IMG/VR virus record: IMGVR_UViG_2695420617_000013
Coordinates: 1-18,918 of that record
From: a virus
Lineage: Duplodnaviria > Heunggongvirae > Uroviricota > Caudoviricetes
Length of the DNA: 18,918 bases
Strand: one strand, 5' to 3'
The notes beneath the pieces were generated by a model, which made no database searches, was not told where the DNA came from, and saw nothing but the letters and a program-made list of their open reading frames with translations. This document shows, in pieces, positions 1 to 18,918 of the stretch. The stretch's first letter is position 1, and every line of letters starts with the position of its first letter. Position numbers and translations under genes: made by a program.

Positions 1-1028
<1,028 letters not shown>

Positions 1029-1901: not shown

Positions 1902-1905
1902 TGGA

Positions 1906-2510: not shown

Positions 2511-2570
2511 TTGATTTTATTCGTAACAAGTATTTTTTATATTTTAATAACATATTTAAAGCAGATAATA

Positions 2571-3895: not shown

Positions 3896-3928
3896 AAAAC
3901 CCGCTCATCAGCGGGTTTTCTACTTTTT
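3896..3928. terminator. Intrinsic terminator hairpin (acccgct-catc-agcgggt) with flanking A/T runs; candidate tR-prime of the late leader
   Basis: 7-bp GC-rich stem, 4-nt loop, T-rich tract on the plus side and a shorter T tract on the minus side. Located about 100 nt downstream of the Q stop on the minus strand. Confidence 0.55.
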
Positions 3929-3931
3929 CTT

Positions 3932-4024
3932 AACGTCGGGTATACAAAGCCCATTGTTGAAAACACTTTATCCATATTTTTTGAAAAATGCAAGCATTAC
4001 GTCGCCATCTTCGGCGAAAATCAT
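3932..4024 (-). promoter_or_regulatory. Candidate late promoter (pR-prime-like) and qut region immediately downstream of Q
   Basis: On the minus strand: TTGCAT, 17-nt spacer, TAAAGT, followed about 50 nt later by the terminator hairpin. This position and architecture mirror lambda pR-prime/qut/tR-prime. Inference only. Confidence 0.3.
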
Positions 4025-4777
4025 TTATCTCGTCACTTTTCTTAATTGCACCTCAGCATATGCTTCTTCCTGCCAGCACTTTGTAACCAGTTTATCAATG
4101 ACATCTGCATATCCTGTGTACCACTGATAATCAGTCAGGGCTGGTACCAGCTTCTGGACATGACACCGCGCCAGTGTCGTTGGTAAACGACTAAACCGGT
4201 TTCCATTGCAACGCCCACAAATCTTATAAACAGGCGCGCCATGAAGCCGGGTCCTTTTTTCATCCAGGACAATACCTTTACCCTTACACCCTCTGCACGC
4301 TGTGCTGACTTCTCCCTTACCATGGCAATGCTGACATAGTTCCTTCACCCACTCTTCCTTGATAACAGATTCCCCGCTTCTGGAGTGTTTCACCACTTCG
4401 CGCAATACATTATGAAATCCAGTACCTGCACAATGCTCACAGCGAGCCTTACTTGCCGCAGACCTGGAATAATCAGCAAAGGCAAAATTCACAAGGTAAG
4501 GGATGATCTGTAACCGGATTTCTTCACTCAATTTATTCAATGTCGGGTTATCCAGTGCCATCGCGTAATTGAGCAGACCTTCAATCGCAAACTGAGGATC
4601 CTGAACACCAACTTTTGCCAGGAATAAGGCAAAACCCAGTGGTGCTTTCGACTGCACCATCCCCTGCGCAGCCATCACATCCGTAATCGTTAAACCACCC
4701 GAGCCTGTCGCCGGTGCGTCATCACTCAATTTTGGAGATTTTGGGGAGTAATATTTTGGTAAGGCTTCAAGGTTCAT
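4025..4777 (-). CDS. quuQ: Late-gene antitermination protein Q (250 aa from the ATG at 4777)
   Basis: Cys-rich zinc-binding region (CQHCHGKG...CRGCKGKG...CGRCNGNRF), with the position upstream of the late promoter and lysis genes. ATG at 4777 with GGAG RBS; the ORF-track start at 4819 is GTG. Confidence 0.8.
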   Translation of the reverse strand: MNLEALPKYYSPKSPKLSDDAPATGSGGLTITDVMAAQGMVQSKAPLGFALFLAKVGVQDPQFAIEGLLNYAMALDNPTLNKLSEEIRLQIIPYLVNFAFADYSRSAASKARCEHCAGTGFHNVLREVVKHSRSGESVIKEEWVKELCQHCHGKGEVSTACRGCKGKGIVLDEKRTRLHGAPVYKICGRCNGNRFSRLPTTLARCHVQKLVPALTDYQWYTGYADVIDKLVTKCWQEEAYAEVQLRKVTR

Positions 4778-4790
4778 GCTCGTTCTCCAC

Positions 4791-5786
4791 TTACGCCAGT
4801 ACGCCTGTTGCCAGCGCACGATCGATAAAACGAAATATCAGCTCCAGCTGGGAGCCATACTTCTCTTCAAATGCCACGGTATCCGCATGCAGCTCGTCGT
4901 GATGCTTTCTGCACAAAGGCAACACAAAGAGGTCATGCGCTTTTGTTCCCATTCCACCCTGACCGTGACCTATCAGGTGGTGGGGATCATCAGCAGGCTT
5001 TCCACAACATGCACACGGCTGTGTCTTAACCCAGCGCGTGTACTTTTCATTAACCCAGCGGCGACGTTTTGGGCGTAACATAAAAGACTCCGGCGACTCC
5101 GGATCCACTTTCAGCGCCAGCACCTTTTTTGCCTTATCCTGGATGATGCTGGTGGCAGGAACCGAAGGCACAAGGTCACTTTCCCGGGTGACAGACGGCA
5201 CAACAGGCTTTGGTAATCTCAGTGCCTTACGGGCTGCACTTTCCGGTAAGGCATCCGCCAGGTCATTACGAATCAGCCACCAGCACAGTTCCGGCATTGT
5301 CACAACGTGACTATCATCAAAACCGAGATCCCGACGCACAACAGACAACACCCAGCGGGCACAGTTATCCGTTGCCATTGATTCCAGCCGTTCCGTGAAC
5401 TGATCGCGCAGCTGGTTATCGCAGTGCCAGCACAGACGGATTGCGCCCGTAGCGTGTCGCATTGTTGTCATATTCTCGCTGTGCCAGTCGGAATGAGGCC
5501 ACTGGCAGCCTTTTTCACGAAGTAACCAGCTTTCAAGACATTCCACGCCACCAGCACGACGGATCACTGCCTCATTGCGGAACACGGCCCGAACGGCAGG
5601 ATCATCCGCCAGCGGTTGTGATGCCGCCGGAACGGCACCACTGGCGAAAGATGAATAACGTTCCGGCTCAGGCTCCAGCAGGACACGCCCCTGCATAAAC
5701 AAGGGCATCAGCTCTGAACCTGGTCTGAACAATACGATCCCCATACGCGGGGCAATTTCAGGGGTCAGTAGTGCTCTCACGGTCAC
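4791..5786 (-). CDS. ydfU: DUF968-family phage protein with C-terminal HNH-like Cys/His motif (YdfU-like)
   Basis: C-terminal PCACCGKPADDPHHLIGHGQGG...LCRKHHDELH zinc/HNH-like motif. Sits immediately upstream of Q as ydfU does in Qin. Start codon uncertain (GTG at 5786 or ATG at 5744). Confidence 0.65.
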   Translation of the reverse strand: MTVRALLTPEIAPRMGIVLFRPGSELMPLFMQGRVLLEPEPERYSSFASGAVPAASQPLADDPAVRAVFRNEAVIRRAGGVECLESWLLREKGCQWPHSDWHSENMTTMRHATGAIRLCWHCDNQLRDQFTERLESMATDNCARWVLSVVRRDLGFDDSHVVTMPELCWWLIRNDLADALPESAARKALRLPKPVVPSVTRESDLVPSVPATSIIQDKAKKVLALKVDPESPESFMLRPKRRRWVNEKYTRWVKTQPCACCGKPADDPHHLIGHGQGGMGTKAHDLFVLPLCRKHHDELHADTVAFEEKYGSQLELIFRFIDRALATGVLA

Positions 5787-5787
5787 C

Positions 5788-6603
5788 TCAATGAACGGTA
5801 TCGAGCAGCTTTAACAGCTCAGGGAATCGGGATTCGAAGAAATGCGGCTGCGTCTCGCGCGGATTTGCAGGACTGGTGATGTTCTTGCCGAACATGCAGC
5901 CTTTCGCGGTCAGCGACCAGAATTTTTTGATGTTGTTAATCGCGGTACGACTGTATCGTTCGCGTTGTTCAACGATCCCCAGCTTCGCCATCTGGTGATA
6001 TGCCTGATTAGCCGTCAGGCGGATACCATACTGCTTCAGCAGTGCACTCAGCGACAGCGTAGGGCGGCTTGAACCATCTGGCGCATCAGCAGGTGCATCA
6101 ATGGCATAGATCGGCATAAGTTCAGGAAGACCAGCTACCTTTGATAATTTCTGGTATGCACCAAGTTTCGAGGAGTTTGACAGATTTAGAGTCTTTGCTG
6201 CTGATTCAAGCAGAATGACCCCGGATTTAATTTTGTCGGATGTGGTTTCTTCTGGTGATGAATTATGAAGCGCATCAAAAGTACGTATCACTTTTAAGCT
6301 GAATGCCGGGCTGATCCACATTGCATATGCATAGACCAGCTCTTTACAGACATACGTCCCACCATTGCGCCCCTGAATGGTGATGACAGGAATACTACGG
6401 GAATCTCCCGTAGTTTCTTCTTCCAATAATTCCACAAGAGCCTTCGTTTCAGGACGACGCATAAACTCGTGAACTTCCAGCGAACGGGAGGAGCGATTCT
6501 CACCAGCGGCAAGAAGAGCAGCTTTCTGAAGGTCGTTAAGACAGTAGTTAGATTCGAAGTACTGGCGCACAGAAACGCCATCAATTACAAGCAACTGATT
6601 CAT
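5788..6603 (-). CDS. KilA-N domain protein (Roi/antirepressor-like DNA-binding protein)
   Basis: N-terminal region ...IQGRNGGTYVCKELVYAYAMWISPAFSLKVIRTFDAL matches the KilA-N/APSES-type domain signature. ATG at 6603 with GGAG RBS. Confidence 0.65.
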   Translation of the reverse strand: MNQLLVIDGVSVRQYFESNYCLNDLQKAALLAAGENRSSRSLEVHEFMRRPETKALVELLEEETTGDSRSIPVITIQGRNGGTYVCKELVYAYAMWISPAFSLKVIRTFDALHNSSPEETTSDKIKSGVILLESAAKTLNLSNSSKLGAYQKLSKVAGLPELMPIYAIDAPADAPDGSSRPTLSLSALLKQYGIRLTANQAYHQMAKLGIVEQRERYSRTAINNIKKFWSLTAKGCMFGKNITSPANPRETQPHFFESRFPELLKLLDTVH

Positions 6604-6765
6604 TGGTTTCTCCACAAATTTTTATCCACGAGCGGGACTGCACTCCCTTTTCGTTGATGCAGGATGAACTTACTGCGATTTTTAATAGTTATCAAGGATA
6701 CACTGTTCATAAATACAGTATCTTTAACGAGGTAATACCCAAATTTAGGGTGTTGCTCAATTCCG

Positions 6766-7161
6766 TTACCGAGTTGCTAATTTGCAACTCGCTTTTTCGT
6801 ACTTACTGATAGTGATCTCGACCTTCCCCTCCGGGATAACCGGTCCCCACTCCACCAGCATTCTTTTCACCTGACTGTCGTCTTCCCACACCCCCGCGTG
6901 GGTCAGGGCGTCAAACAGCGCCTTGTTATAGTTGTCCAGATCGCGGATCCGGTTATCCGGAGGAAACAACACGATCTCCACTGAAGCAGGTGCCGACGTT
7001 GGTTTCGGCAGACGACGTAACTGCTCAACTATTGCTGCACACGCCGCGCTCTGGAATTTTCGCCCCGCCGCGCTTATCAGGCTCTTACCAGCAAACGCCC
7101 CTTTGTTGGGGTGTCGCCAGTACGTGTTCACGCTGGGCGGAAAAGGCAGGATCAGCTTCAT
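6766..7161 (-). CDS. rusA: Holliday junction resolvase RusA
   Basis: RDLDNYNKALFDALTHAGVWEDDSQV matches the conserved RusA catalytic-Asp region. Start overlaps the upstream gene stop (translational coupling). Confidence 0.85.
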   Translation of the reverse strand: MKLILPFPPSVNTYWRHPNKGAFAGKSLISAAGRKFQSAACAAIVEQLRRLPKPTSAPASVEIVLFPPDNRIRDLDNYNKALFDALTHAGVWEDDSQVKRMLVEWGPVIPEGKVEITISKYEKASCKLATR

Positions 7162-7484
7162 ACTTTCAGGCCTCTCTCATGTAACCAATGGGCTGCACGC
7201 AGCCTGGCGTTTTCCTCACCGGCAAGCAGTGAGCGGATAATCCCGACCGCCTCGCTGTCGTCGTCCTTCACCACGGTATGAAGCGTGATCCCCCGGGCCA
7301 CACCACGCTTTATCGTGATGACGCCTTTTTTCTCCAGTGCGCGAAGATGCTCCACCGCTGCATTCACTGAACGGTATCCCAGCATGGTTGCCACCTCCTG
7401 ATTGGTTGGCGGGAAGCCACGTTCTTTCTGATAAGAAATCAGCATATCCAGCACCTGCTGCTGGCATTGAGTTAACGTCGTCAT
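7158..7484 (-). CDS. LexA N-terminal DNA-binding-domain-only protein (108 aa), lacking the S24 peptidase domain
   Basis: LTQCQQQVLDMLISYQKERGFPPTNQEVATMLGYRSVNAAVEHLRALEKKGVITIKRGVARGITL aligns residue-for-residue with the LexA winged-helix DNA-binding domain ([55 protein letters not shown]). No Ser/Lys autoprotease domain follows. Confidence 0.7.
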   Translation of the reverse strand: MTTLTQCQQQVLDMLISYQKERGFPPTNQEVATMLGYRSVNAAVEHLRALEKKGVITIKRGVARGITLHTVVKDDDSEAVGIIRSLLAGEENARLRAAHWLHERGLKV

Positions 7485-8134
7485 GCCGCCATCTCCCTGA
7501 CCAGTTTTTCCGCCTGCTGGCGAACCTGCGCCAGAAACACCTCACCACATGCCTCAAGTTCATCGCGCCCGATGTAGCTGATTGCCGGTCCCTTCCAGGT
7601 CTTGTCGAAAACAGCAATAGCACCAGCGAAGAAAGCGCCTGTCGGCACCTGCTTCTCATCCTTCGGGATAAACCAGGCAGGCAGTTCAAAACCAATACGC
7701 CCGCGAATAAAAGCAATATGATCTGCATCTTCCGGCCACCACACTTCGCTGGTGGCAGCTTTGATCAGGAAAACATAGCGCCCGCCTTTATCACGCATGG
7801 CACTGGCATGCTTCATGATGTAACGCATGCCGGTGATGTATTGCCCCTCATGCTGACTGGCGCGGCTGTATGGGGGATTACCAAAGGCAGCACCTTTAAG
7901 CTCCGCAAGACGTTCTGACCAGTCATGCGCCAGCGCGTTGTCTTCCGCCGTGTAATACGCGGCACATTTGGCGTTATCACCGTCAGTGAACAGATCCAGA
8001 ACAAACGGACCAAACAGGGTGTTAATTCCCCAGAAAATGTTATCCGGCGTGCGCCACTGATCGCCCACGTCCTTCAGTTCATGGGCTGGTTTGTTCCGCA
8101 GTTCCACCAGCGCCCGGCAATATTTATTACTCAT
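7481..8134 (-). CDS. Phage N6-adenine DNA methyltransferase (Dam-like)
   Basis: NPPY motif (AFGNPPYS) characteristic of N6-adenine methyltransferases. ATG at 8134 overlaps the upstream stop. Typical nin-region phage Dam. Confidence 0.8.
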   Translation of the reverse strand: MSNKYCRALVELRNKPAHELKDVGDQWRTPDNIFWGINTLFGPFVLDLFTDGDNAKCAAYYTAEDNALAHDWSERLAELKGAAFGNPPYSRASQHEGQYITGMRYIMKHASAMRDKGGRYVFLIKAATSEVWWPEDADHIAFIRGRIGFELPAWFIPKDEKQVPTGAFFAGAIAVFDKTWKGPAISYIGRDELEACGEVFLAQVRQQAEKLVREMAA

Positions 8135-8628
8135 TAAGCCCCCACGTAATTCCCTGACAGATACCACTCTTCACCCGATGCAGCGCGCTTGCTGCTTTTC
8201 CGTAAGCACCGCTCACGACGTGCCAGAAAATTGTTTCGTTCTGGCTGGGAGTGGCTTTCACGGAATGCCGCCATCCACACGGTTGCAGCACGACGGTATA
8301 AGCCCCTTGACTCCAGTTCTTCAGCCTGGCGGGTCAGGCACAAAATCACCCGTGGATCGTTAGTGCCGACATAGAAATTGCGCACAGGTCTGGTTTCACG
8401 AACTGGTTGTGGTTCCGGCTCCTGCGCTCTCTCAGTCAGGCGCGGGAAATGTCTGCGTGTATCTCCTTCACAACGGTGAGCCACACGCCCACTCTGACGT
8501 AACTTGCTTGCTGACTGCAGAACGCGCTGCCGTGAGTAACCTGCAAAAGCATCCGCAATGTCTCCGGAAGTACACCCCGGATGGGCTTCAATGAATTTCT
8601 GAACTTCATTCAAAAGACTCATAATCAC
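8134..8628 (-). CDS. PerC-like transcriptional regulator with N-terminal extension
   Basis: C-terminal half (AEELESRGLYRRAATVWMAAF...ERNNFLARRERCL) resembles the PerC/Pch family signature found in enterobacterial prophages. The N-terminal 60 aa are unassigned. Confidence 0.4.
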   Translation of the reverse strand: MIMSLLNEVQKFIEAHPGCTSGDIADAFAGYSRQRVLQSASKLRQSGRVAHRCEGDTRRHFPRLTERAQEPEPQPVRETRPVRNFYVGTNDPRVILCLTRQAEELESRGLYRRAATVWMAAFRESHSQPERNNFLARRERCLRKSSKRAASGEEWYLSGNYVGA

Positions 8629-9566
8629 CCCCTGAATCCTGCCGGGATCTGGCTGTAGTCCACGTTGTCGTAACTGGCTTTGAAGTACGGGTCTTCACGT
8701 TTTTCTGTGTGCGTGCTGACGGACGGCGATAAGCGCAGGGAAAGCTCATCCCATTTTTCCCGCAACTTCGACGGGCTGAGCACGTTACGGCACCAGAACG
8801 GATCGCGGCTGACGCGGCTGTACATCTCGCAGATTTGTTTGTGAGTACGACCATCCTGCACACACATCAGGCGAATTTCGTTTGCCCAGGCTGTCCAGTT
8901 AGGTTCTTTGGGACGAACCACCTCGCCGTCACATTCGGCGGCCTGCTCGTACAGGGCGATGATTTTTTTCCAGAGCCACTGTGCGCAGGTCAAATCATCC
9001 TGCGTCCCCCACTGGCGCTTTTTAGGGCTGAATACAACCGCATCAGGATGGCGAGTTAAAAAATCCTGTTCATCCGTCTGCGTGTCCGGTTGCGAAGCGT
9101 CCGGACGAGAAGGTTTTTTATCTGACGGATCATGTTTTGATTTTACTGACGGATCCCCGACAGATTCTGACGGGTGAAAACCCGCTTTTTTGCCAGATTT
9201 CGACGCATCAAATTTTGACGGGTCAGATTTTGATGCGTCAGATTTTGACGGGTCAGAATCTGACAGTTGAGAAAATGCCGCTGCCTGAAGCTTCGCAACG
9301 TTAAGCTGATAAACATTCGACGCATTGCGGTTACCCTGGCGACGCGCCTTACGCGTTAACCAGCCTTCTGCTTCCAGCCGTGCGATAGCCGTTCTGACGG
9401 TACTCATCCCCGCGCCAATCTGACGGGCAATGGTTTCAATTGATGGCCAGCACACACCTTCGTCATTACTGAAATCAGCCAGGCGGGCCATAATTGCCAC
9501 GCTGGATAACTTCATGCCTGACGCAGCGCAACCATCCCATACATAGCCGGTTAATTTAGTGCTCAT
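8625..9566 (-). CDS. Phage replication initiation protein (O-like), N-terminal wHTH with internal iteron-encoded linker
   Basis: N-terminal HTH (SIETIARQIGAGMSTVRTAIARLEAEGWL), a linker encoded by tandem DNA repeats (SDPSKSDASKSDPSKFDASKS), and a Trp-rich C-terminal domain. Position downstream of cro/cII-like genes matches the lambda O slot. No P- or DnaC-like loader gene follows. Confidence 0.6.
   Translation of the reverse strand: MSTKLTGYVWDGCAASGMKLSSVAIMARLADFSNDEGVCWPSIETIARQIGAGMSTVRTAIARLEAEGWLTRKARRQGNRNASNVYQLNVAKLQAAAFSQLSDSDPSKSDASKSDPSKFDASKSGKKAGFHPSESVGDPSVKSKHDPSDKKPSRPDASQPDTQTDEQDFLTRHPDAVVFSPKKRQWGTQDDLTCAQWLWKKIIALYEQAAECDGEVVRPKEPNWTAWANEIRLMCVQDGRTHKQICEMYSRVSRDPFWCRNVLSPSKLREKWDELSLRLSPSVSTHTEKREDPYFKASYDNVDYSQIPAGFRG
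9121..9265. repeat. Iteron-like direct repeats (candidate replication origin) inside the replication initiator gene
   Basis: About eight copies of a TGACGG(G/A)T-type motif, including three tandem 15-bp units (attttgacgggtcag / attttgatgcgtcag / attttgacgggtcag) at 9211-9255, with AT-richer sequence on one side. This mirrors ori-lambda lying within O. Confidence 0.55.
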
Positions 9567-9575
9567 GACCGACCT

Positions 9576-9914
9576 CTATTTCCCTGAATTTACGACGAAA
9601 CTGTTCGAGCGGACTGAAGCATTCATGCTCATAGCCTTCGCGGAGGTAGATAACCCGTTGTGTTTCCGGCTCCCAACGAATGACTCTGACGGGTACTCCG
9701 TAGTGATCTTTGAACCAGCGGTTAATTTGACGCAAAGGACTGTCTCCTTCTGCCGGTTGAAATCACCCACAGCCCACTCTGCAAAGCTGTGGGTTACAAT
9801 TTCCCTGTCACCTGGTACATTCACTGCATAGCAATACTCCACCTTCGCTTTTCCACCCGGTACAGGAAGCGCAATCAGTTGCGAGCGACGGTAGGGTGTT
9901 GTTAAACTGTTCAT
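9576..9914 (-). CDS. Hypothetical protein (112 aa), translationally coupled upstream of the replication gene
   Basis: Stop TAG lies 9 nt before the initiator ATG, and the strand matches the operon. No domain recognised. An alternative plus-strand ORF (9559..9831) overlaps and was judged less likely. Confidence 0.35.
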
Positions 9915-10525
9915 GCGTTAGTTTCTCCACAATTAGAAGCAATCGACGCCACGACGCCCGGAGCTGCACACTCGCGGGCGTCATTACTTTCTGAAATGCA
10001 AAAGATTTTGTAGACCAGTGCTGCATGCTCCTGCAGCTTCGAAATTGACAGGTACAGTTCGTCGTTAATTGCTGCCTGCTCGTGTGGTTCCACCACCCCG
10101 TCTTCAATTGCTGAACGAATCTGTTTTGAATAACTGCCGATCTGTTCAATGACCTCCAGCAGGCGTTGGTTTATATCGGCGTTCTCTACTTCCTCAATTT
10201 CAGGAAGCGATACAAACACCCCACCAGCAGACTGTGCGACTGCATCCGCAATGTGGTGAGTGCCAGCAGCACGCTGTAAAACCATTGCCCATCCCAGCGG
10301 GAAAATCTGATCGCCATCGGCACGAAGGCGGTTAAATAATGCGTTCTCTGTTACATCCAGCCAGTCAGCAGCTTCAGCGTAACCCCCCGGCAATGCCGCG
10401 ATAGTTTTTCTGACAGCTTTCACGTACCACTCAGGCTGTTTTTCTACTTTCCAGTGATGCTTACCCACGGTTAGCCTCATCGTTCTGTGGTTTCTGTTAA
10501 TCGATTTATCCATTAGATTTTTCAT
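9911..10525 (-). CDS. YdaT-like / cII-position regulatory protein
   Basis: Occupies the slot directly after the cro-like gene, as ydaT does in Rac-type prophages. Start assigned to the internal ATG at 10525 to limit overlap with cro; the ORF-track start is 10582. Family assignment is from position and general resemblance only. Confidence 0.4.
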
Positions 10526-10706
10526 AAAGCTCAGGTTTAAATGGCAACCGTCCGCAAGTTCTATATGCAGCTTCTGCTGCACGTCCTTTTGGAATTAACT
10601 GGCCCGGACGGTTTCGCCACTGATAAACGGCTTCAGTTGTTATGCCGAAAAAAGCAGCAACTTTCTCAATACTGCCGAAGTAGCTTTCGATATCGTCAGT
10701 TGTCAT
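10506..10706 (-). CDS. Cro-like HTH repressor (66 aa)
   Basis: Small HTH protein (FGITTEAVYQWRNRPGQ) transcribed divergently from the cI-like repressor. Strong GGAGGG RBS upstream. Confidence 0.6.
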   Translation of the reverse strand: MTTDDIESYFGSIEKVAAFFGITTEAVYQWRNRPGQLIPKGRAAEAAYRTCGRLPFKPELYEKSNG

Positions 10707-10803
10707 ACGCCCTCCAAACTAAGTTTTATTAGATGCTAATTACAAATCTATCTTTGGTCAATAAAAACTAAGATTACTTAGCAATTCAAGAAATGGTGCT
10801 CCT
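10707..10803. promoter_or_regulatory. Immunity-region operator/promoter (OR-like) between cro-like and cI-like genes
   Basis: 97-bp AT-rich divergent intergenic region with repeated CTAAG/CTTAG half-sites (e.g. CTAAGATTACTTAG, CTAAGTTTTATTAG) and a TTGACC -35-like element for the cro-direction promoter. Confidence 0.4.
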
Positions 10804-11430
10804 ATGGAAACGGTTGGTCAGCGTATAAAAGCTCTGAGAAGAGTTACCAGAACGTCCCAGAAAGAATTGGGTAAATTTTGTGGAGTAAGCGACGTTGCTG
10901 TGGGGTACTGGGAGAAAGACATCAATACCCCTGGTGGGGAGGCACTTTCGAAATTAGCGAAGTTCTTCAATACGTCAATAGATTACATTCTTTATGGTGC
11001 TGAGTTTGAAGGCAAACTCGTCACAAACATGCGCAGAGTTCCTGTAATATCGTGGGTTCAGGCTGGGCAGTTTACTGAGTGCAGGGCAGCAGAAGTGTTT
11101 AGTGAAGTGGACAAGTGGGTAGATACATCATTAAAGATTGGTGATAACTCATTTGCATTAGAGGTTAAAGGTGACTCCATGACTAACCCTAATGGCCTCC
11201 CAACAATACCAGAAGGCGCAACAGTGATTGTAGATCCAGATGCAGAACCTCGTCATGGAAAAATAGTCATCGCTCGACTTGATGGAACAAACGAAGCTAC
11301 AGTAAAAAAATTAGTCATCGATGGCCCTCAAAAGTTTTTAGTGCCATTAAATCCTCGGTATCCCAACATCCCTATCAATGGTAATTGCCTTATCATTGGT
11401 GTAGTCAAAGGAGTTCAATACGAACTCTAA
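10804..11430 (+). CDS. CI-like prophage repressor (HTH-XRE N-terminus, S24 LexA-like autopeptidase C-terminus), 208 aa
   Basis: N-terminal HTH (SQKELGKFCGVSDVAVGYWEKD). C-terminal S24 signature with the Ser nucleophile in GDSM and a downstream Lys (VKKL). Implies a RecA/SOS-cleavable repressor. Confidence 0.9.
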   Translation: METVGQRIKALRRVTRTSQKELGKFCGVSDVAVGYWEKDINTPGGEALSKLAKFFNTSIDYILYGAEFEGKLVTNMRRVPVISWVQAGQFTECRAAEVFSEVDKWVDTSLKIGDNSFALEVKGDSMTNPNGLPTIPEGATVIVDPDAEPRHGKIVIARLDGTNEATVKKLVIDGPQKFLVPLNPRYPNIPINGNCLIIGVVKGVQYEL

Positions 11431-11439
11431 GACCTCTCT

Positions 11440-11632
11440 TCTCTAACTAAGGCACCGAACTAAGAAAAGTTTGGTGTTTTCTCTTGCTATAATAACTAAG
11501 TTAAGTTAGATTTTATATCAAAGATAACGAACAGGCAGGACGCCCACGAAGTAGCCGCCGGTGGCGTATGAATGACCGGATGATTCGTTAGCAACAAAAA
11601 AAGCGCCCTATAGGACGCTTCGCTCTTTAACA
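11440..11632 (+). promoter_or_regulatory. Candidate pL-like promoter/operator region with rrn-type boxA-like motif
   Basis: CTAAG operator-like repeats (aactaaggcaccgaactaag; aactaagttaagttag) flank an extended -10 (tTGcTATAAT) near 11484-11492. Downstream motif GCTCTTTAACAA at about 11618-11629 matches the core of the boxA element as I recall it, preceded by a palindrome gcgccctataggacgc. Confidence 0.3.
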
Positions 11633-11664
11633 ATCCTGGTATCCCCGTAACAAAAGAGGGTTCT

Positions 11665-11958
11665 ATGGTCATATTCTGTGCTTACGTTCATCCTAATGGA
11701 TTTTTTATCAGCACCAACCAACAAGACGAATTCTGGATTCTACTTAGTAAGCAGGTCGGATGGGGACGATTCTGTCTAATCCGACCAGAATCAGAATTTA
11801 CAGAGAATGGAGGGCTTTTTGAATTACGTGAAATACGTCCGGCAGATGGTCAAGCCCCTGACCAAGTAATCGAATCGTCAGCTGTTTTATGGCGTCGGCA
11901 GGAAGCGTTCGAAGCTGAGAGAGTAATTTCTTCTTATCTTCAGTCGTGGCAGAAGTAG
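11665..11958 (+). CDS. Hypothetical protein (97 aa), first ORF downstream of the putative pL
   Basis: Good RBS (aaagagggttctATG). No recognisable domain and not Arg-rich (not N-like). Its 3' 160 nt overlap the convergent ORF 11798..12301, so one of the two may be mis-called. Confidence 0.35.
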   Translation: MVIFCAYVHPNGFFISTNQQDEFWILLSKQVGWGRFCLIRPESEFTENGGLFELREIRPADGQAPDQVIESSAVLWRRQEAFEAERVISSYLQSWQK

Positions 11959-12301
11959 AACTATTGATGATACGTTCAAGTTCACAGAGAGTCTCATCAT
12001 GCAATCTTATTGTCATAATCCCAAGAATAGCTTTAAGACCTCCATCATCACGAATGAAATCAATTCCATCTTTAGTAATTCTTAATTCAGGAATATTTAT
12101 ATTTATGCCATCCAAGTAATAATCAAGAGCATTCTTAATCAAGCCATGTTCTTCGAGATAAATTAAGTTCGAAATTAGGACATTATCATCTCCAAATGCG
12201 TCACGAACAGACTGCAACGCATCATCAGAAATTTCATAAGGATGAGCATCATACAGTATTTGTAACAACTGCCTTTGTGCACTTCTATCAAATTTGTCCA
12301 T
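11798..12301 (-). CDS. Hypothetical AT-rich protein with predicted winged-helix motif (DUF2513-like?), convergent with the cI/pL direction
   Basis: Strongly AT-rich coding sequence (about 11960-12300) versus GC-balanced flanks. Motif NLIYLEEHGLIKN resembles a wHTH recognition helix. Opposite orientation to all neighbours. A hairpin (ggtcggat...atccgacc) follows its stop. Confidence 0.5.
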   Translation of the reverse strand: MDKFDRSAQRQLLQILYDAHPYEISDDALQSVRDAFGDDNVLISNLIYLEEHGLIKNALDYYLDGININIPELRITKDGIDFIRDDGGLKAILGIMTIRLHDETLCELERIINSSTSATTEDKKKLLSQLRTLPADAIKQLTIRLLGQGLDHLPDVFHVIQKALHSL

Positions 12302-12579
12302 CTTAAATAATCACCATGTTATTGGGGTTATCAAGATTAACCGAATCCTTGTTGTTGGGGAATAACCAGGTCCACCTCGCCTGATGTGGCTAAAAGCAGG
12401 CACATAACAGCTAAGTATTTTCAACCAGAGAGAATCCTTAGCGTTGTGGTGAATGCGGCTCAGCGCACGCGGGTTAAGGTTGAGGCTGACAGTCGACCTT
12501 CTGTGGATACCCACCCGCCTGGTGTGCAACCTTCGCCAGGCACCGGGAGGCACCCGGCACCACAACAGCCACTGCTTTG

Positions 12580-12714
12580 GCGGTACCAGTTTGTACACTT
12601 GCTTCCGGCTGGTACCGCTCTTTTTACAAAACAGAGAAGAGCATCACCGGACGACGGGCTCATAACCCAATCCACCCGGGCGGCTGCCACCGCAGGTGTT
12701 CTTCTCTGTTTTGT
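12580..12714 (+). promoter_or_regulatory. Structured leader: terminator-like hairpin plus long imperfect inverted repeat upstream of the yfdP-like operon
   Basis: Hairpin cggtaccag-(loop)-ctggtaccg followed by ctcttttt (12582-12625). Immediately after, acaaaacagagaaga...tcttctctgttttgt forms a 15-bp perfect stem extended by 4 more bp across a bulge, enclosing a 46-nt GC-rich loop. The terminator U-tract (ctcttttt) overlaps sequence complementary to the second stem (agaagag), so the two structures are mutually exclusive. boxA-like CGCTCTTTTTAC at about 12617. Confidence 0.4.
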
Positions 12715-12762
12715 GGAGAAACCAACCGACCTTGCAGGGTCGATATGATGAGGAGCAGCAAA

Positions 12763-13125
12763 ATGGCTAGCGAACGCAGTACTGATGTGCAGGCATTTAT
12801 CGGGGAGCTGGACGGCGGCGTATTTGAAACCAAAATCGGCGCAGTTCTCAGTGAAGTCGCTTCCGGTGTGATGAACACGAAAACCAAAGGGAAGGTCTCA
12901 CTCAATCTGGAAATCGAACCGTTTGATGAGAACCGTGTGAAAATCAAACACAAACTCTCATATGTTCGCCCGACTAACCGCGGGAAAATTTCCGAAGAAG
13001 ACACCACCGAAACGCCGATGTATGTCAATCGCGGTGGTCGCCTGACTATTCTGCAGGAAGACCAGGGACAATTACTGACTCTTGCCGGTGAACCTGACGG
13101 AAAACTCCGCGCAGCAGGTCATTAA
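12763..13125 (+). CDS. YfdP-like phage early protein (120 aa)
   Basis: ATG with GAGGAG RBS, directly upstream of the yfdQ/yfdR/yfdS-like genes in the same order as the CPS-53 (KplE1) prophage cluster as I recall it. The ORF-track start at 12577 lies in the structured GC-rich leader and is rejected. Confidence 0.55.
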   Translation: MASERSTDVQAFIGELDGGVFETKIGAVLSEVASGVMNTKTKGKVSLNLEIEPFDENRVKIKHKLSYVRPTNRGKISEEDTTETPMYVNRGGRLTILQEDQGQLLTLAGEPDGKLRAAGH

Positions 13126-13190
13126 TATCGTTTTTAATTAACTGATTATTTATCTCATCACTGAATATTTTTATATAGTGAGGACTTATT

Positions 13191-14015
13191 ATGTCTCAGA
13201 ACTTAGACGCAACCGCAATTAATCAAATCCATGCCCTTATTTCTGCTCAGGGTGTTAATGAAATTATCAGTAAGATTGGTGCCGATGCTGTGGCATTGCC
13301 TGAGAATTTCCGCATTCATGATCTGGAAAAATTTAATTTAAATCGTTTCCGTTTCCGTGGTGCGCTTTCCACTGCCAGCATCGATGACTTTACCCGTTAT
13401 TCTAAAGATCTTGCAGATGAAGGCACCCGCTGCTTTATCGATGCCGATAATATGCGTGCCGTCAGTGTGCTTAACCTGGGTACTATTGATGAACCAGGTC
13501 ACGCAGATAACACCGCCACTCTCAAACTGAAAAAGACAGCACCGTTCTCTGCTCTGTTGTATGTTAATGGCGAGCGTAACTCCCAGAAATCACTGGCAGA
13601 ATGGATTGAAGACTGGGCCGACTACCTTGTGGGCTTTGATGCTAATGGTGACACCATTCAGGCAACAAAAGCGGCTGCGGCGGTCCGTAAAATCACGATT
13701 GAAGCAAACCAGACTGCTGATTTTGAAGATAATGACTTCAGCGGCAAACGCTCCCTGATGGAGTCTGTCGAAGCGAAGACCAAAGACATTATGCCAGTGG
13801 CATTTGAGTTTAAATGCGTTCCGTTTGAAGGTCTGAAAGAACGTCCGTTTAAATTACGCCTCAGCATTATCACTGGCGATCGTCCGGTACTGGTTCTGCG
13901 CATTATTCAGCTGGAAGCGGTGCAGGAAGATATGGCTAACGAATTTCGTGATCTGCTTGTTGAGAAATTCAAGGACAGCAAAGTAGAAACCTTTATTGGG
14001 ACTTTCACCGCCTGA
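13191..14015 (+). CDS. yfdQ: YfdQ-like protein (DUF2303 family), 274 aa
   Basis: Length and sequence character match E. coli prophage YfdQ as recalled. GAGGA RBS. Conserved gene order with the HD-domain YfdR homolog downstream. Confidence 0.7.
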
Positions 14016-14027
14016 TTTCATTACTGC

Positions 14028-14049
14028 AAATGCCCCTGCGGGGGCATTT
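14028..14049. other. Perfect 9-bp-stem hairpin (aaatgcccc-tgcg-ggggcattt) between yfdQ-like and yfdR-like genes
   Basis: Seen directly in the sequence. Lacks a long U-tract, so it is a weak terminator at best; could be an attenuator or RNA processing/stability element. Confidence 0.3.
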
Positions 14050-14142
14050 ATGGAAACATAATTGACTCAATAATCGCCTGATGGCGAGGGTTTTCTTTAA
14101 CCAAAATTCAGCGCGGTGCAGCGCATATACGTGGAGAACAAA

Positions 14143-14679
14143 ATGTCATTTATTAAAACTTTTTCCGGGAAGCATTTTTATTATGACAAGATAAATAAAG
14201 ACGACATCGTGATTAACGATATCGCGGTTTCCCTTTCAAATATCTGTCGCTTTGCAGGACATCTTTCACACTTCTACAGTGTCGCCCAGCATGCAGTGCT
14301 TTGCAGCCAACTGGTGCCGCAGGAATTTGCTTTTGAAGCGTTAATGCATGATGCAACAGAAGCGTATTGCCAGGACATCCCCGCACCACTGAAACGACTT
14401 CTTCCTGACTATAAACGGATGGAAGAAAAAATAGACGCCGTAATCCGTGAGAAATACGGGTTACCTCCTGTTATGAGCACGCCAGTGAAATATGCCGATC
14501 TCATTATGCTGGCAACCGAACGCCGCGATCTCGGACTTGATGATGGCTCTTTCTGGCCTGTATTGGAAGGTATCCCGGCAACAGAGATGTTCAAAGTTAT
14601 TCCACTGTCGCCAGGTCATGCCTACGGGATGTTTATGGAACGTTTTAACGAGTTATCGGAGTTACGCAAATGCGCATGA
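14143..14679 (+). CDS. yfdR: HD-domain 5'-deoxynucleotidase, YfdR-like (178 aa)
   Basis: HD phosphohydrolase motifs (H...LMHDATEAY) and 178-aa length from the ATG at 14143 with GGAGA RBS. The ORF-track start at 14116 is upstream of the RBS. Confidence 0.8.
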   Translation: MSFIKTFSGKHFYYDKINKDDIVINDIAVSLSNICRFAGHLSHFYSVAQHAVLCSQLVPQEFAFEALMHDATEAYCQDIPAPLKRLLPDYKRMEEKIDAVIREKYGLPPVMSTPVKYADLIMLATERRDLGLDDGSFWPVLEGIPATEMFKVIPLSPGHAYGMFMERFNELSELRKCA

Positions 14680-15032
14680 ATGTTTTCGAAATGGAAGGGT
14701 TTCTTCGCGGGAAATGTGTACCGCGAGATCTGAAAGTGAACGAAACAAATGCTGAGTACCTGGTACGTAAATTCGACGCGCTTGAAGCTAAATGTGCGGC
14801 ACTGGAAAACAAAATAATACCAGTGTCAGCTGAATTGCCACCTGCAAATGAAAGTGTTCTGTTATTTGATGCTAACGGAGAAGGCTGGCTGATTGGCTGG
14901 CGTTCTCTCTGGTACACCTGGGGACAAAAGGAAACCGGAGAATGGCAGTGGACATTTCAGGTCGGGGATCTTGAAAACGTCAATATCACTCACTGGGCAG
15001 TAATACCAAAGGCACCGGAGGCAGGGGCATAA
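14670..15032 (+). CDS. yfdS: YfdS-like phage protein (120 aa)
   Basis: Start overlaps the yfdR-like stop (ATGCGCATGA). Same length and position as YfdS in the yfdPQRST cluster. Confidence 0.6.
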   Translation: MRMNVFEMEGFLRGKCVPRDLKVNETNAEYLVRKFDALEAKCAALENKIIPVSAELPPANESVLLFDANGEGWLIGWRSLWYTWGQKETGEWQWTFQVGDLENVNITHWAVIPKAPEAGA

Positions 15033-15652
15033 TGACCACATTTACCGACAAAGAACTGATTAAAGAAATCAAAGAGCGTATAGGCAGTCTGGATGTGCGA
15101 GACAATATTGAGCGCCGTGCTTATGAAATTGCTTTGGTATCGCTGGAAGCAGAACCGGTGGCATGGCTGCATTCAGACAATGGCTTAGGTATTCCGGCAA
15201 TAACACGGAGTAAAAACATTGCTGACAGTTGGTTATCAAAGGGCTGGTATGTTCAGCCGCTATATATAGCCAAGCCAGTGCCGGTGGTGCCAGATGTTCG
15301 TCCATCTTTAAATAATGGCATAGTCGGTTTTGATGAAGGCTGGAACGCCTGCCGCGCCGCCATGCTTCATGGTGCCGAACCTGTAAGCCAAACTTACAAG
15401 TTGAACGAGCTGTCGGGCAACTCTCCGGTAACTCCGGATGGTTGGATAAGCTGTAGTGAGCGAATGCCGAACGATAAACAGTATGTTTGGTGTTGGGGGA
15501 AGTCTTACGGCTGGACTGAGTGCGATACCTTCGAAGGGTATTACGATTGGTCGAGAAACAAATGGTGGGCAATTACTGACGATGGGGAAGAACCGGCATC
15601 GAAAGTAACCCACTGGATGACGCTACCGGAGCCACCGCAGGAGGTGAAGTAA
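15032..15652 (+). CDS. Phage protein with C-terminal DUF551 domain
   Basis: C-terminal Trp-rich motif (PDGWISCSERMPNDKQYVWCWGKS...KWWAITDDGEE...VTHWMTLPEPP) is characteristic of DUF551. Start overlaps the upstream stop (TAATGA). Confidence 0.65.
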   Translation: MTTFTDKELIKEIKERIGSLDVRDNIERRAYEIALVSLEAEPVAWLHSDNGLGIPAITRSKNIADSWLSKGWYVQPLYIAKPVPVVPDVRPSLNNGIVGFDEGWNACRAAMLHGAEPVSQTYKLNELSGNSPVTPDGWISCSERMPNDKQYVWCWGKSYGWTECDTFEGYYDWSRNKWWAITDDGEEPASKVTHWMTLPEPPQEVK

Positions 15653-15900
15653 TGAACAACTTAATGACAACTAAACAAGTCGCCGACTTCTGTGGCGTTT
15701 CAGTATCGACCGTTCTTCGCTGGAACAGTGTAAACAGGAGAACTGGCCAGAAATACAGGCCAGACTTTCCAGATCCTGATATTAAATCCTGCCCAAATAA
15801 ATGGGCATCACGTAAGATTTACAAATTTGCCGGAGTTATTGAGGAATGTGAAGCAGCTCAGATTGAGATGACACATCCTATAGCACATAGCCAAACATAG
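15652..15900 (+). CDS. Excisionase-like / AlpA-type HTH DNA-binding protein (82 aa)
   Basis: HTH (TTKQVADFCGVSVSTVLRW) in a small protein at the distal end of the early-left operon near the integrase, the usual xis position. Start overlaps the upstream stop. Confidence 0.45.
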   Translation: MNNLMTTKQVADFCGVSVSTVLRWNSVNRRTGQKYRPDFPDPDIKSCPNKWASRKIYKFAGVIEECEAAQIEMTHPIAHSQT

Positions 15901-16096
15901 CAATCAGACTGTCCGCTTTGTGTTGAAGCGGACATTGCCGCAGCGACTTGTCTTAGCCATAAATAACCAAAACGATGCGCTGTTCATATAAAGTTCTTTT
16001 AAACTTCAAATCAGTAATTTTTGTCTAAATCTTTTCAAACTCATAAAAACCAGTAAGATAAGAAATCACCTTTACCTGTTTTTATGAGAGGCATAA

Positions 16097-17323
16097 ATGA
16101 TTGATAATGAAGTTAAAATTTTTGCAAAAGAAAAAGAAAAAATGCTGTGCAGCAAACTTTCTTTTTACAGGGAGCATGCTCAATCGAGTGAAGATACAAG
16201 AAAAAGAAACGAATTTGAACGAGACTATGCGCGTATTCTTTATTCCTCTTCGTTCCGCCGGTTACAGGGAAAAATGCAGCTCTTTGAAGTCGATCCTCAA
16301 AAATTTAACCGTAATAGACTGACTCATAGCCTAGAAGTTGCCCAGATAGCCCGAAGCATCGCATCCGAACTAGAACTTGAACATCCTGTTGTAGCAGAAC
16401 TGGCTGCACTTGCTCACGATATTGGCAACCCTCCGTTTGGTCATTCCGGTGAAAAAAAGCTAAACGATATTGCTAATGATTTCGGCGGCTACGAAGGCAA
16501 TGCGCAGGCACTTAGAATACTCAGAAGTCTCGAGATAAAGCATCCAAATTGCCCCGGTCTCAACCTTACCCACCGTGCCATTCTCTCCGTCGTTAAATAT
16601 CCTTATAAAAAGGAAAACGGCAGAAAAAAATATCTTTATAATGATGACTATAAATACTACACAGAATTGGTAAATAGATATGAATTAGATTTGCAGACTG
16701 GCGAGAAGACCATTGATGCACAGATAATGGATCTGTCAGACGAAATTGCATATGCCGCGCATGACCTTGAAGATGCACTAAGCCGTAGCATGGTCAGTAT
16801 TGAAGATATTTTTTATGAGTTTGGGATATCCAAGTACAAAGACTCAATTGATTTATTAAATACAATCATTGAAAAATCTAAATATACAGCTTCGAGAGCA
16901 TCAAGACTCAATTCATCTGAAGAGTTCGCCATAATATTCAGAAAGGAATTGACATCCAATATTGTTAATGCGCTTGTTAATGATATTACTGTTATTCAAA
17001 GTGAAAATGGATTCAAGCAACTTGGATTTAGCACTACAAAAAATCTGTCTGCAGGCCTTAAAGATATCGTATTTAAAGTCATCATGCGAAAAAGAGATAT
17101 TAAAAGTTATGAGCACAAAGGAAACATTATCATCGAAGATTTATTTAATTTTTATAATGATAGAGATAACATAGAATTCATATCCCCTCAATTGTATAGA
17201 ACGCTCCCAAATAAAATAGAGCCTATTTATCAAGAACTTAAAAAACGTGCAATTGTCGACTACATCTCTGGAATGATGGATACATTTGCCATCCGCGAGT
17301 GGGAAACGCATCACAAAAAATAA
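16097..17323 (+). CDS. Dgt-family HD-domain dNTP triphosphohydrolase (dGTPase-like), 408 aa; candidate anti-phage dNTP-depletion enzyme
   Basis: Conserved dGTPase motifs: DYARILYSSSFRRLQGKMQLF, RLTHSLEVAQIARSI, HDIGNPPFGHSGE, DEIAYAAHDLEDA. Strong GAGAGG RBS. The gene is markedly AT-rich relative to the flanking prophage genes and sits alone between the excisionase-like gene and the convergent integrase. Confidence 0.85.
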   Translation: MIDNEVKIFAKEKEKMLCSKLSFYREHAQSSEDTRKRNEFERDYARILYSSSFRRLQGKMQLFEVDPQKFNRNRLTHSLEVAQIARSIASELELEHPVVAELAALAHDIGNPPFGHSGEKKLNDIANDFGGYEGNAQALRILRSLEIKHPNCPGLNLTHRAILSVVKYPYKKENGRKKYLYNDDYKYYTELVNRYELDLQTGEKTIDAQIMDLSDEIAYAAHDLEDALSRSMVSIEDIFYEFGISKYKDSIDLLNTIIEKSKYTASRASRLNSSEEFAIIFRKELTSNIVNALVNDITVIQSENGFKQLGFSTTKNLSAGLKDIVFKVIMRKRDIKSYEHKGNIIIEDLFNFYNDRDNIEFISPQLYRTLPNKIEPIYQELKKRAIVDYISGMMDTFAIREWETHHKK

Positions 17324-17694
17324 CCAAACTGGCGCACATCAACAACAGATTCAGTGCCACTCTTCCCATGGGACAGAACAGTGATTCTGTCCATTATCAC
17401 CCGATTATACAGATAAGCCACATCTAGTAGTTCTGAGCTAGCATTTTCCACATTGATTACGCTTCCGTGCACATCGTTATTTTTAACCAAAAAGAAAGGA
17501 CATACGCAAAAATAATATCAAGTAACGGAGTGTGTTAAATCGTAACCAATCATCTTTACTTTACATTTCGTAACTTAAACCGTACGTTTTCTAAACATTA
17601 AATATACACTTTGCGCTGTAAGTTATATCTCTCCGTTAAGCTCACTGCTCAACGCCAATAGTCATATTTTATTGCGTTCTGGCTGCGCAAATTG

Positions 17695-18918
17695 TCAACT
17701 GGAATCTGAACTAGGACAAGTAACGAGCGATTCAACCCTCTCCCACCATACCTGGTAGGCTTTACGCTGTTCTTCTAGATAATCGCTCTTGTCATAAACC
17801 TGCCATACCCCTGGCAGTTTATGACCAAGCATAATTTCTGCAATATGAGGCGCAGTAAGATCAGAAAAGTTTGTTCGTGCTGTTCGCCTCAAATCATGAA
17901 GAGACCAATGAGGGAATTGATACCCCAAACGTCGCCATGCGAACTGCATTAAATTGTAAGGCAGCGACTGCAATGATGTCCGACCAACTGGCTCCCTGCT
18001 TCCTTCCTTAGTAAAAAGCATATCGGAACCGTTGTTCATAGAGATAACGTATTTTATAAGCTCTTCAACCGGTTCAATAATGGGCCGCTTTAGTGGTTCG
18101 CCTGTTATCTCCCCTGTCTTATGTCGTTCTGGCGGTACAGTCCATACCTTATTAATGAAATCAAAATCGTCCACCCTGGCGGTAATTAGCTCTGAACTAC
18201 GGCAGCCAAAATGCAGCAATAGTTTAATGAAGGCCCGGTATTTAGGAACCATTCGAGAACCATCGATCGCAGCATAAAGGATTTTAATTTCATCATGTGT
18301 CAGAAACCGTTTCTTCTGACCTTTACGGATATCCATATCTTTACCCGTGATATCCGACAGCGGGCGAGTTTCAATGAGCTTTCTCTTATACGCCCAGACA
18401 TGGGCCTGCTTTGCGTTAATTAGTAATCGGTCTGCTATTGCTGGAGCCTTAGTGCTAAGAGGCTCCAGGACTTCTAACCAATCATGCAATGTAGCTGCAT
18501 CGTGAGGGATATTCCCGATTTTAGAGAACAGGTGCAGCTCAAACGAGCGGAGTATCTGTTCAGAGCCTTTTTTATTTTTTACACAATATGCTTCATACCA
18601 GGCACGGATCACAGACTCTACCGTCATGGCTTCAGTAGCTTTTCGTTTTTCAGCCTGCTTGACCAATCGTGGATTACGGTTTGACTCGAGTTCACCACGG
18701 AGACGGATAACTTCTTCTCTGGCCTCTTTTAATCCAGTTGCCGGGTAAGTTCCGATATCAAGACGCTCACCTTTCCCTGCCCATTGATAACGATATTGGA
18801 ACACTACGCGACCTTTCGGTGATACTCTGACAGACAGACCATCACGATCGGATTTAACCAAAACCTTATCACGTTCCTTTCCAACGACTGAACGCAACCA
18901 CGCATCAGACAGCGCCAT
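17695..18918 (-). CDS. Tyrosine recombinase / phage integrase with N-terminal arm-binding domain (407 aa)
   Basis: N-terminal arm-type domain (GLSVRVSPKGRVVFQYRYQWAGKGERLDIGTYPATGLKEAREE) and C-terminal catalytic region (HDLRRTARTNF...GH...Y). The ATG is the last three bases of the window, so the attachment site and any tRNA lie beyond the edge. Confidence 0.9.
   Translation of the reverse strand: MALSDAWLRSVVGKERDKVLVKSDRDGLSVRVSPKGRVVFQYRYQWAGKGERLDIGTYPATGLKEAREEVIRLRGELESNRNPRLVKQAEKRKATEAMTVESVIRAWYEAYCVKNKKGSEQILRSFELHLFSKIGNIPHDAATLHDWLEVLEPLSTKAPAIADRLLINAKQAHVWAYKRKLIETRPLSDITGKDMDIRKGQKKRFLTHDEIKILYAAIDGSRMVPKYRAFIKLLLHFGCRSSELITARVDDFDFINKVWTVPPERHKTGEITGEPLKRPIIEPVEELIKYVISMNNGSDMLFTKEGSREPVGRTSLQSLPYNLMQFAWRRLGYQFPHWSLHDLRRTARTNFSDLTAPHIAEIMLGHKLPGVWQVYDKSDYLEEQRKAYQVWWERVESLVTCPSSDSS

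Follow-up and report, generated by a model that had tools for sequence, protein, structure and literature searches.

The 18,918-nucleotide (nt) stretch analysed here, positions 1 to 18,918 of IMG/VR record IMGVR_UViG_2695420617_000013 (hereafter the window), is a lambdoid prophage with 100% identity to E. coli 15.TR.026_OXA. The subject of this report is the structured leader region at 12302-12762, which lies between a gene encoding 167 amino acids (aa) and yfdP, the first gene of an early operon. On the upstream side stand a cro-like gene (10506-10706, minus strand) and a LexA-family, cI-like repressor gene (10804-11430, plus strand; Peptidase_S24 plus a helix-turn-helix). Operator-like repeats of the AACTAAG type (repeat families D5 and D10) occur at two places, the cI/cro intergenic segment (10717-10781) and 11440-11515. 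The second place, directly 3' of the repressor gene, carries the rightward-pointing hexamers of a PL-like site, TTGCTA-17-TAGATT at 11484-11512, with TATAAT at 11488-11493. By these features the OL operators and the PL promoter of the early-left operon would lie at 11440-11515 (plus strand). From there to the RNA core described below is about 930 nt, and PL is the presumed source of the transcript that bears the RNA. The 167-aa gene (phrog_3983; 11798-12301, minus strand) lies between PL and the RNA.

Downstream, the GAGGAG ribosome-binding site and the yfdP ATG fall within 12750-12765 on the plus strand (the RefSeq yfdP start in the identical strain corresponds to window position 12763). yfdP (12763-13125) is followed on the same strand by yfdQ (DUF2303), yfdR (5'-deoxynucleotidase), two genes without assigned function, an excisionase gene (15652-15900; phrog_1553) and a dGTPase-type anti-phage defence gene (16097-17323; PADLOC dGTPase, E 3.5e-105). 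The last of these ends the early-left region and adjoins the integrase gene, which lies beyond it on the minus strand; DUF551 is also among the operon families, between the 5'-deoxynucleotidase and the excisionase. The segment from yfdP to the excisionase gene is a lambdoid early-left operon ending in xis. Its content (YfdP, DUF2303, 5'-deoxynucleotidase, DUF551 and excisionase) does not bear out the 'host-takeover genes' of an earlier note on this DNA, here called the original prediction. In lambda, PL, nutL and N stand at the equivalent place of the leader region. The equivalent site, from the repressor gene to the first early-left gene, is also filled in ST64B, mEp460, phiSTEC1575-Stx2k, F1055, phiNP and the E. 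coli K-12 prophage e14, and the element was found in 2,810 of the 5,426 complete E. coli genomes searched.

The leader differs sharply in composition from its surroundings, with a GC fraction of 0.54-0.61 over about 12375-12750 versus 0.31-0.37 in the flanks. The segment 12400-12770 folds at -161 kcal/mol (z -7.4), and none of 100 shuffled sequences folded as well. A structured, GC-rich leader of the yfdP operon had been proposed and is indeed present, although not over the full 450 base pairs (bp) claimed (12311-12762): the structured part is confined to 12372-12762, whereas 12302-12372 is AT-rich and bears the promoter-like site of the divergent 167-aa gene. Likewise, the claim that no credible open reading frame spans the region was right as to coding status but not as to the reading frames themselves, since a 120-aa GTG frame at 12386-12748 and further frames cross it. 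The K-12 e14 homologue is annotated in RefSeq as protein YmfH, and some genomes have a 'hypothetical protein' at this place. A YmfH-like protein-coding gene, in the open frame 12386/12446-12748, is therefore the alternative that existing annotation would favour, and we consider it exceedingly improbable. In an alignment of eleven E. coli-type and two Salmonella-type relatives the variable columns divide 21:21:19 among codon positions. An 8-nt indel in the linker between the RNA core and the terminator (below) and several 1-nt indels break the frame between relatives that are 93-97% identical, and the ST64B sequence has in-frame stops, one of them at codon 20. The translation is of low complexity (Pro/Arg/Gly-rich), the downstream 'protein' sequences diverge among relatives, Pfam and NCBIfam searches gave no family match, and conservation is accounted for by RNA covariation. 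Because the frame is not conserved, the leader region is non-coding, and ymfH is most likely an annotation artefact placed over a structured RNA, as judged from the sequences. In e14, ymfH (locus L002, 5076-5387) overlies the e14 copies of the core, the terminator and the long hairpin described below and lies directly upstream of xisE-intE. The element has thus gone unannotated or been mislabelled as protein, as ymfH in K-12 and as 'hypothetical protein' elsewhere.

The 5' domain of the leader belongs to a known family of structured RNAs. When Rfam was searched at E-value threshold, the sole credible match was STnc100 (RF02076), full-length at 12425-12627 with 36.0 bits (E 3.8e-6); the e14, ST64B and phage P1 copies scored 29-35 bits against the same model. 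At gathering threshold nothing was returned in the region, the sole match in the window being the cspA thermoregulator at 2811-3250 (minus strand, full-length, 156 bits), which lies over a prophage-borne cspB-like cold-shock gene in the late region. The core occupies 12443-12566 on the plus strand and consists of a closing helix P1 (12443-12451 with 12558-12566), three conserved hairpins and a pseudoknot. The first hairpin, H1 (12455-12470), is preceded by GAAU and has a bulged A and a UNNGC loop; H4 spans 12517-12541; and H5 (12543-12557), CCGGG-AGGCA-CCCGG, abuts the closing helix. A further hairpin, H0 (12410-12442), precedes the core in the minimum-free-energy (MFE) fold and is only partly conserved in ST64B.

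Viral contigs were scanned with a motif pattern derived from the two ends of the core, which gave 120 loci with 98 distinct cores, nearly all of them real. These sort into four subtypes: type A, canonical STnc100 (69-161 bits in Rfam); type B, comprising the copies of the window, e14, ST64B and phage P1; type C, found in mEp460 and phiSTEC1575-Stx2k; and type D, in which H5 is changed to CCUGG/CCAGG. A covariance model, R1, was built from ten type-A cores only (all seven seeds that were rechecked with Rfam scored 104-161 bits for STnc100). R1 recovered the window copy over its entire length (12440-12569, model positions 1-134 of 134) with 56.8 bits and an E-value of 3.5e-11. The ST64B (60.1 bits, E 5.6e-12), phage P1 (51.8 bits, E 5.5e-10) and e14 (44.8 bits, E 2.7e-08) copies were also matched at full length. 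No second copy was found by R1 in the window as a whole, and none in the PR operon. R1 did not detect the type C cores of mEp460 and phiSTEC1575-Stx2k at E<0.01, giving them 17 and 15 bits when its filters were disabled, and their kinship rests only on the common closing-helix, GAAU, H1 and H5 motifs.

Across 53 aligned family members 97.7% of the cells pair, compared with 76% in shuffles and at most 55% with slid partners, and both-side changes occur in 18 of the 26 core pairs; as this alignment was fitted to the model, these pairing numbers lean towards structure. The same kind of change can be read from the raw sequences, where the closing helix appears as GCAU/AUGC, GUGU/ACAC, GUUGU/ACAAC and GAUGC/GCAUC. 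Note that MAFFT alignments across subtypes (A2, A3 and A4) set the H4/pseudoknot register wrongly, and RNAalifold then gave only the closing helix, H1 and H5; they were replaced by a covariance-model alignment (A6) and a per-sequence script. A scan against RNA families and a search for compensatory changes were among the checks that the original prediction had proposed; the scan found STnc100, and compensatory changes were found in the core, in the pseudoknot and in the long hairpin downstream. The core is a divergent, promoterless member of the STnc100/EcOnc27/PasD structural family.

The pseudoknot joins AAGGUUG (12476-12482), the segment 3' of H1, to CAACCUU (12527-12533) in the H4 loop, a pairing that is not part of the Rfam STnc100 model. 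Tested by our own per-sequence matching script rather than by R-scape, the best match was at least 5 in 83% of 59 distinct family variants, versus 20% for mismatched partners. The family uses 28 distinct sequences for this helix, among them UGGUUAU/AUAACCA in phage P1 and CCAGUC/GACUGG, AUCAGCG/UGCUGGU and CUGGUGU/ACACCGG in type A. A column-wise count on A6 was dropped because loop lengths shift the register between subtypes. In the MFE fold of the window, AAGGUUG alternatively pairs locally with UCGACCUU at 12493-12500.

Several of the other copies lie in settings of their own. The phage P1 core, hitherto unannotated, is at 1499-1628 of locus L003 (P1 record 70075-70204), between upl and tciA in the C1-controlled ban operon, which also holds three tRNA genes and a dicF-like region. 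The type D core (L018, 5793-5927) has a long closing helix and stands immediately upstream of kilR in Rac-type prophages; a type D query matched 4,162 of the 5,426 complete E. coli genomes. kilR is silenced by Rho/NusG. A more divergent core in Klebsiella phage Kp4866-6 (L128, 2293-2418) precedes the same terminator and long-hairpin module as that of the window, with a fully compensated H5, GGUGG-AGGCA-CCACC. In F1055 and phiNP (L129 and L130, about 2300-2500) a closing helix GUUGUGG…CCACAAC encloses a different interior, with the same module after it. The taxonomic range rests on the phage collection (Salmonella, Klebsiella, Citrobacter and Cronobacter), the pattern used to scan genome contigs having been so specific that it returned four Escherichia/Shigella records only. 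A tRNA-like nature of the core, with the closing helix and H5 stacked like acceptor and T arms and with tRNA genes as neighbours, was considered and rejected, as ARAGORN found nothing and the H5 loop is not a T-loop. Salmonella phage ST64B also has matches to C4 antisense RNA (79.7 bits) and IsrK (64.3 bits) at 1409-1597 (minus strand) of locus L004, inside the sb41 coding sequence (transcriptional regulator) of the PR-side operon.

The subtypes divide into autonomous genes and leader-embedded copies. With a sigma-70 match of 8/12 or better in the upstream region taken as a promoter, 28 of the 43 type-A copies have one, compared with 0/10 for type B, 2/19 for type C and 3/10 for type D. Fifteen type-A copies have sites of the type TTGACA-18-TAAATT, with 5-9 nt between the end of the -10 element and the closing helix, so placed that these RNAs would start at the fold and end at their own terminator. 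Type A also forms tandem arrays of promoter-core-terminator units, with four copies in L020 (2322-3354) and three in L035 (369-992). Such arrays (L020, L035 and also L032, 3146-3745) have three or four repeats with a period of about 250-330 nt and often lie beside phage tRNA clusters, which many type-A copies adjoin. Since no plus-strand promoter-like site was found in 12302-12440 of the window, its copy is, judged by upstream sequence, leader-embedded and without a promoter of its own. Nor does it occupy the canonical location of the family, a late-operon moron site with tRNA genes or stx and a convergent AsxR/AgvB-type RNA: a tRNA search of the window and the Rfam search for AsxR/AgvB returned nothing.

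After the core come a linker (12567-12578), which is 8 nt shorter than in almost all relatives and also differs in sequence, and an intrinsic terminator, T1 (12579-12625, plus strand). T1 has a stem of 11-13 bp (12579-12589 with 12609-12619; free energy -21.2 kcal/mol, z -4.4 versus shuffles), followed by C and UUUUU (12620-12625). In ST64B, F1055 and Kp4866-6 another hairpin sequence stands at the T1 position and is followed by the identical TTTTTACA tail; as position and T-run are kept while the stem is replaced, T1 behaves as a functional terminator. Of 129 family copies, 97 have a hairpin with a T-run behind it; the median distance from core to T-run is 59 nt, the same as in the window. 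A convergent small RNA (sRNA) on the minus strand that shares T1 was considered and rejected, because there is no minus-strand T-run and the G.U pairs favour the plus strand.

Beyond T1 the leader forms HP2 (12621-12719, plus strand), a long hairpin with a core stem at 12626-12645/12695-12714 and conserved apical sub-hairpins. The underlying inverted repeat (12626-12650/12690-12714) has 15 perfect pairs, beyond which the pairing continues with the help of G.U pairs, and HP2 alone folds at -43.5 kcal/mol (z -7.1). In seven sequences from Escherichia, Salmonella, Klebsiella and Citrobacter its 33 pairs are 92.6% paired, with 41-50% in slid controls, and both-side changes occur at five pairs. An invariant U.G and other G.U pairs suit the plus-strand RNA only, and the apical sequence GACGGGCUCAUAACCCAAUCCA is nearly invariant. 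The T1 U-tract (UUUUU, 12621-12625) pairs with a conserved GGAGA (12715-12719), bringing the HP2 duplex to about 25 bp (20 + 5 pairs). Near the yfdP ribosome-binding site, and just upstream of it, stands the small hairpin HP3 (12727-12742, plus strand; CGACCU/GGGUCG), which is GCCCC/GGGGC in L075 and UGGCGG/CCGCCA in ST64B, so that structure is kept while sequence is replaced. The order core, linker, T1, HP2, GGAGAAAC, HP3 and ribosome-binding site is constant while the first gene varies: yfdP in the window, xisE in e14, a recombination-associated gene in F1055 and another gene in L075.

These data bear directly on the structural claims of the original prediction. The terminator-like hairpin with its T-run (cggtaccag/ctggtaccg, 12581-12589/12609-12617) and the long inverted repeat are both where they had been placed. 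The U-tract does pair, as predicted, with the second structure, at the GGAGA next to the stem, but this lengthens HP2 and does not compete with T1. Terminator and long stem-loop are not mutually exclusive, both being present in the MFE and centroid folds. This weakens the idea of a riboswitch-like element or attenuator in which the core senses a ligand or factor and so selects the terminator or an alternative fold. The layout of an aptamer-like domain followed by a terminator would suit such a switch, as would the two pairing options of AAGGUUG, local or in the pseudoknot. However, no antiterminator pairing and no pairing of the core with T1 is conserved. Compared with its closest relatives the window has a linker of another sequence, with a length difference of 8 nt, and ST64B has a wholly different T1 stem. 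Family members moreover precede unrelated genes, further copies of themselves or tRNA genes. A switch of this sort is highly improbable.

The leader also has a mosaic history. Phages such as mEp460, cdtI and the Stx2c and Stx2a phages share only 12550/12558-12763 with the window, at 97-100% identity, and have another core subtype, and e14, SfV and SfII start to match at 12372. The conserved RNA ends seem, from the positions of these joints, to serve as recombination points. It is conceivable, though on balance rather unlikely, that the leader is a mostly passive module: a captured former sRNA gene that provides a stable structure and a terminator (insulation, protection of RNA ends) and a patch for phage recombination. 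Joints that fall exactly at the ends of the conserved core, with many phages sharing only the 3' part behind a different core type, others at 12372 or right after HP3, and the lack of a promoter all agree with this. Against it, compensatory changes maintain the core helices and the pseudoknot among promoterless subtypes as well (the window compared with phage P1, ST64B, the L012/L022 types and type D), which argues for selection on the RNA fold itself.

We favour, with a probability of roughly 0.55, a leader-embedded member of the STnc100/EcOnc27/PasD family whose terminator releases a small RNA and attenuates the operon. Loss of the LexA-type repressor would let PL fire, and part of the transcripts would end at T1. 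Once trimmed at the 5' end, these would persist as a stable species of some 185-200 nt whose U-tail is free, like that of the autonomous Hfq-binding relatives. T1 would also limit transcription into yfdP…excisionase. RNA that reads through would fold HP2, about 25 bp long and absorbing the T1 U-tract, and then HP3 ahead of the ribosome-binding site. After the leader element and ahead of the first ribosome-binding site there is indeed a near-perfect duplex of at least 20 bp, the arrangement of phage leaders of the lambda N type that are cut by RNase III. HP2 is like the RNase III hairpin of that lambda leader in length and position, and it probably serves RNA processing or stability. The expression data on ymfH are at operon level only. 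The K-12 genes ymfH-xisE-intE are treated as an operon and are co-induced with ymfJ under SOS-like conditions (PMC2634741, PMC12133099), which fits transcription from PL through the element. That the region gates downstream expression, as originally predicted, is a fair inference from the terminator. The stable prophage sRNA that had been offered as an alternative comes closer than the attenuator, the 5' domain being in an sRNA family, with release from this locus as the part that stays conditional.

Several points weigh against this reading. The window copy does not reach the curated STnc100 gathering cut-off of 47 bits, and a discrete small RNA is known only for canonical copies and PasD, not for this subtype. 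As no promoter is near, a small RNA could arise only if a transcript about 1.1 kb long were processed at its 5' side. Before reaching the core, that transcript would run antisense through the 167-aa gene and stay untranslated for about 900 nt, which could expose it to termination by Rho. With only five U's in T1, both its efficiency and the quality of an Hfq module are uncertain, and the reading leaves unexplained how polymerase would pass T1 often enough for xis expression on induction. Finally, so compact and conserved a fold exceeds the needs of a base-pairing sRNA, which hints at a further partner or activity. As for the 167-aa gene itself, it has its own promoter-like site (12334-12307) and a strong minus-strand terminator (11621-11600), and it occupies the position where lambda carries rexAB; no match was found in Pfam, NCBIfam or PADLOC. 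Opposite-strand genes are found just before the RNA copy also in e14 (ymfI) and phage P1 (plp-upl).

Some of these difficulties would be solved if the RNA were a cis-acting processive antiterminator comparable to put of phage HK022, with the core staying on its polymerase and carrying it across the untranslated RNA, through T1 and through later terminators in place of N. The annotations of the window, ST64B, mEp460, phiNP and e14 show no N-like gene in the interval from the repressor to the operon. In early operons under repressor control the element is followed closely by a terminator and by xis or kilR, and its compact, pseudoknotted and conserved fold suggests a macromolecular partner. In e14, moreover, the genes on either side of the element, ymfJ upstream and xisE downstream, are induced to about the same degree (PMC2634741). 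Yet canonical members with the same core, a promoter and a terminator accumulate as short terminated RNAs (PMC5331693, PMC4104026, PMC8550237), contrary to what a core that efficiently overrides the following terminator would give, the tandem promoter-core-terminator arrays look like sRNA genes, and the window has a single copy, with none in the PR operon. We judge antitermination unlikely. Equally little weight is given to the related proposal that the core common to STnc100, PasD-like RNAs and the leader copies is more than an sRNA scaffold and may recognise one particular partner (RNA polymerase, Rho/NusG or some other protein of the host, for example), with the promoterless leader form acting in cis so that early-left transcription crosses long untranslated leaders and terminators to xis, kilR and similar genes. 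If true, it would make these RNAs a second, structurally unrelated class of put-like RNA in N-less lambdoid prophages.

The STnc100 family is wider than its Rfam model, taking in at least three further subtypes, which have no promoter and precede xis, kilR and P1 tciA within early operons controlled by a repressor, and its fold includes a covarying pseudoknot that the current model lacks. Two questions become testable: how early-left transcription and excision proceed past a conserved terminator in N-less lambdoid prophages, and why a single RNA fold serves in autonomous sRNA genes as well as in operon leaders.

Among known systems the closest is STnc100 (RF02076) itself, also named EcOnc27 or sRNA103, which together with the related PasD1/PasD2 comprises Hfq-bound sRNAs of lambdoid prophages. 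STnc100 is present in multiple copies in enterohaemorrhagic E. coli, where the copies are transcribed and one is positive by Northern blot (PMC5331693). EcOnc27/sRNA103, the copy that follows stx2B, is Hfq-bound and belongs to the convergent sRNA pairs found at the moron site after PR' (PMC4104026, PMC7873438, PMC12711010). PasD1/2 depend on Hfq and are structural relatives of STnc100 (PMC8550237; bioRxiv 10.64898/2026.05.13.724894). With these RNAs the window copy shares a closing helix ending GGUG…CACC, the GAAU, the bulged-A UNNGC hairpin, the hairpin with the pseudoknot loop, the CCGGG-AGGCA-CCCGG hairpin adjoining the closing helix, an intrinsic terminator that follows the core at about 50-60 nt, and carriage by a lambdoid prophage. 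It differs from them in falling below the Rfam cut-off, in the sequences of H1 and the pseudoknot, in lacking its own promoter, in lying in the early-left leader by the repressor instead of a late-operon moron site, and in having HP2 and HP3 after the core, which STnc100 lacks. The leader hairpins HP2 and HP3, the pseudoknot and the early-left leader copies are not described in the STnc100 and PasD papers cited here.

With putL and putR of HK022 the common feature is a structured RNA in the early-operon leader of an N-less lambdoid phage, and the ST64B repressor has been noted as similar to HK022 cI. The put RNAs, at about 70 nt, have two stem-loops but neither a closing helix nor a pseudoknot. 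The likeness to put that had been suggested was not recovered: no match came from a blastn comparison (word size 7) with the nun-cI-cro-cII region of HK022, nor from R1 in the HK022 put region (locus L007). Members of the present family moreover end at their own terminators. The PL leader of lambda contains nutL and then a hairpin cleaved by RNase III upstream of N. Analogy with it may be drawn in that both leaders are long and carry an RNA recognition element followed by a near-perfect duplex before the ribosome-binding site of the first gene. Unlike lambda, the window lacks boxA/boxB and an N gene and has a terminator between the two elements, and RNase III cleavage of HP2 is putative. Finally, lambda 6S RNA and StxS are short, terminated transcripts of the late promoter pR' with a second role as sRNAs. 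They have their own constitutive promoter and are read through by Q, whereas the window copy has no adjacent promoter and no known antiterminator. What would link them is a leader that ends at an intrinsic terminator, at once blocking the operon and yielding an Hfq-binding RNA, as described for StxS (PMC7873438) and as the window leader may do in its own operon.

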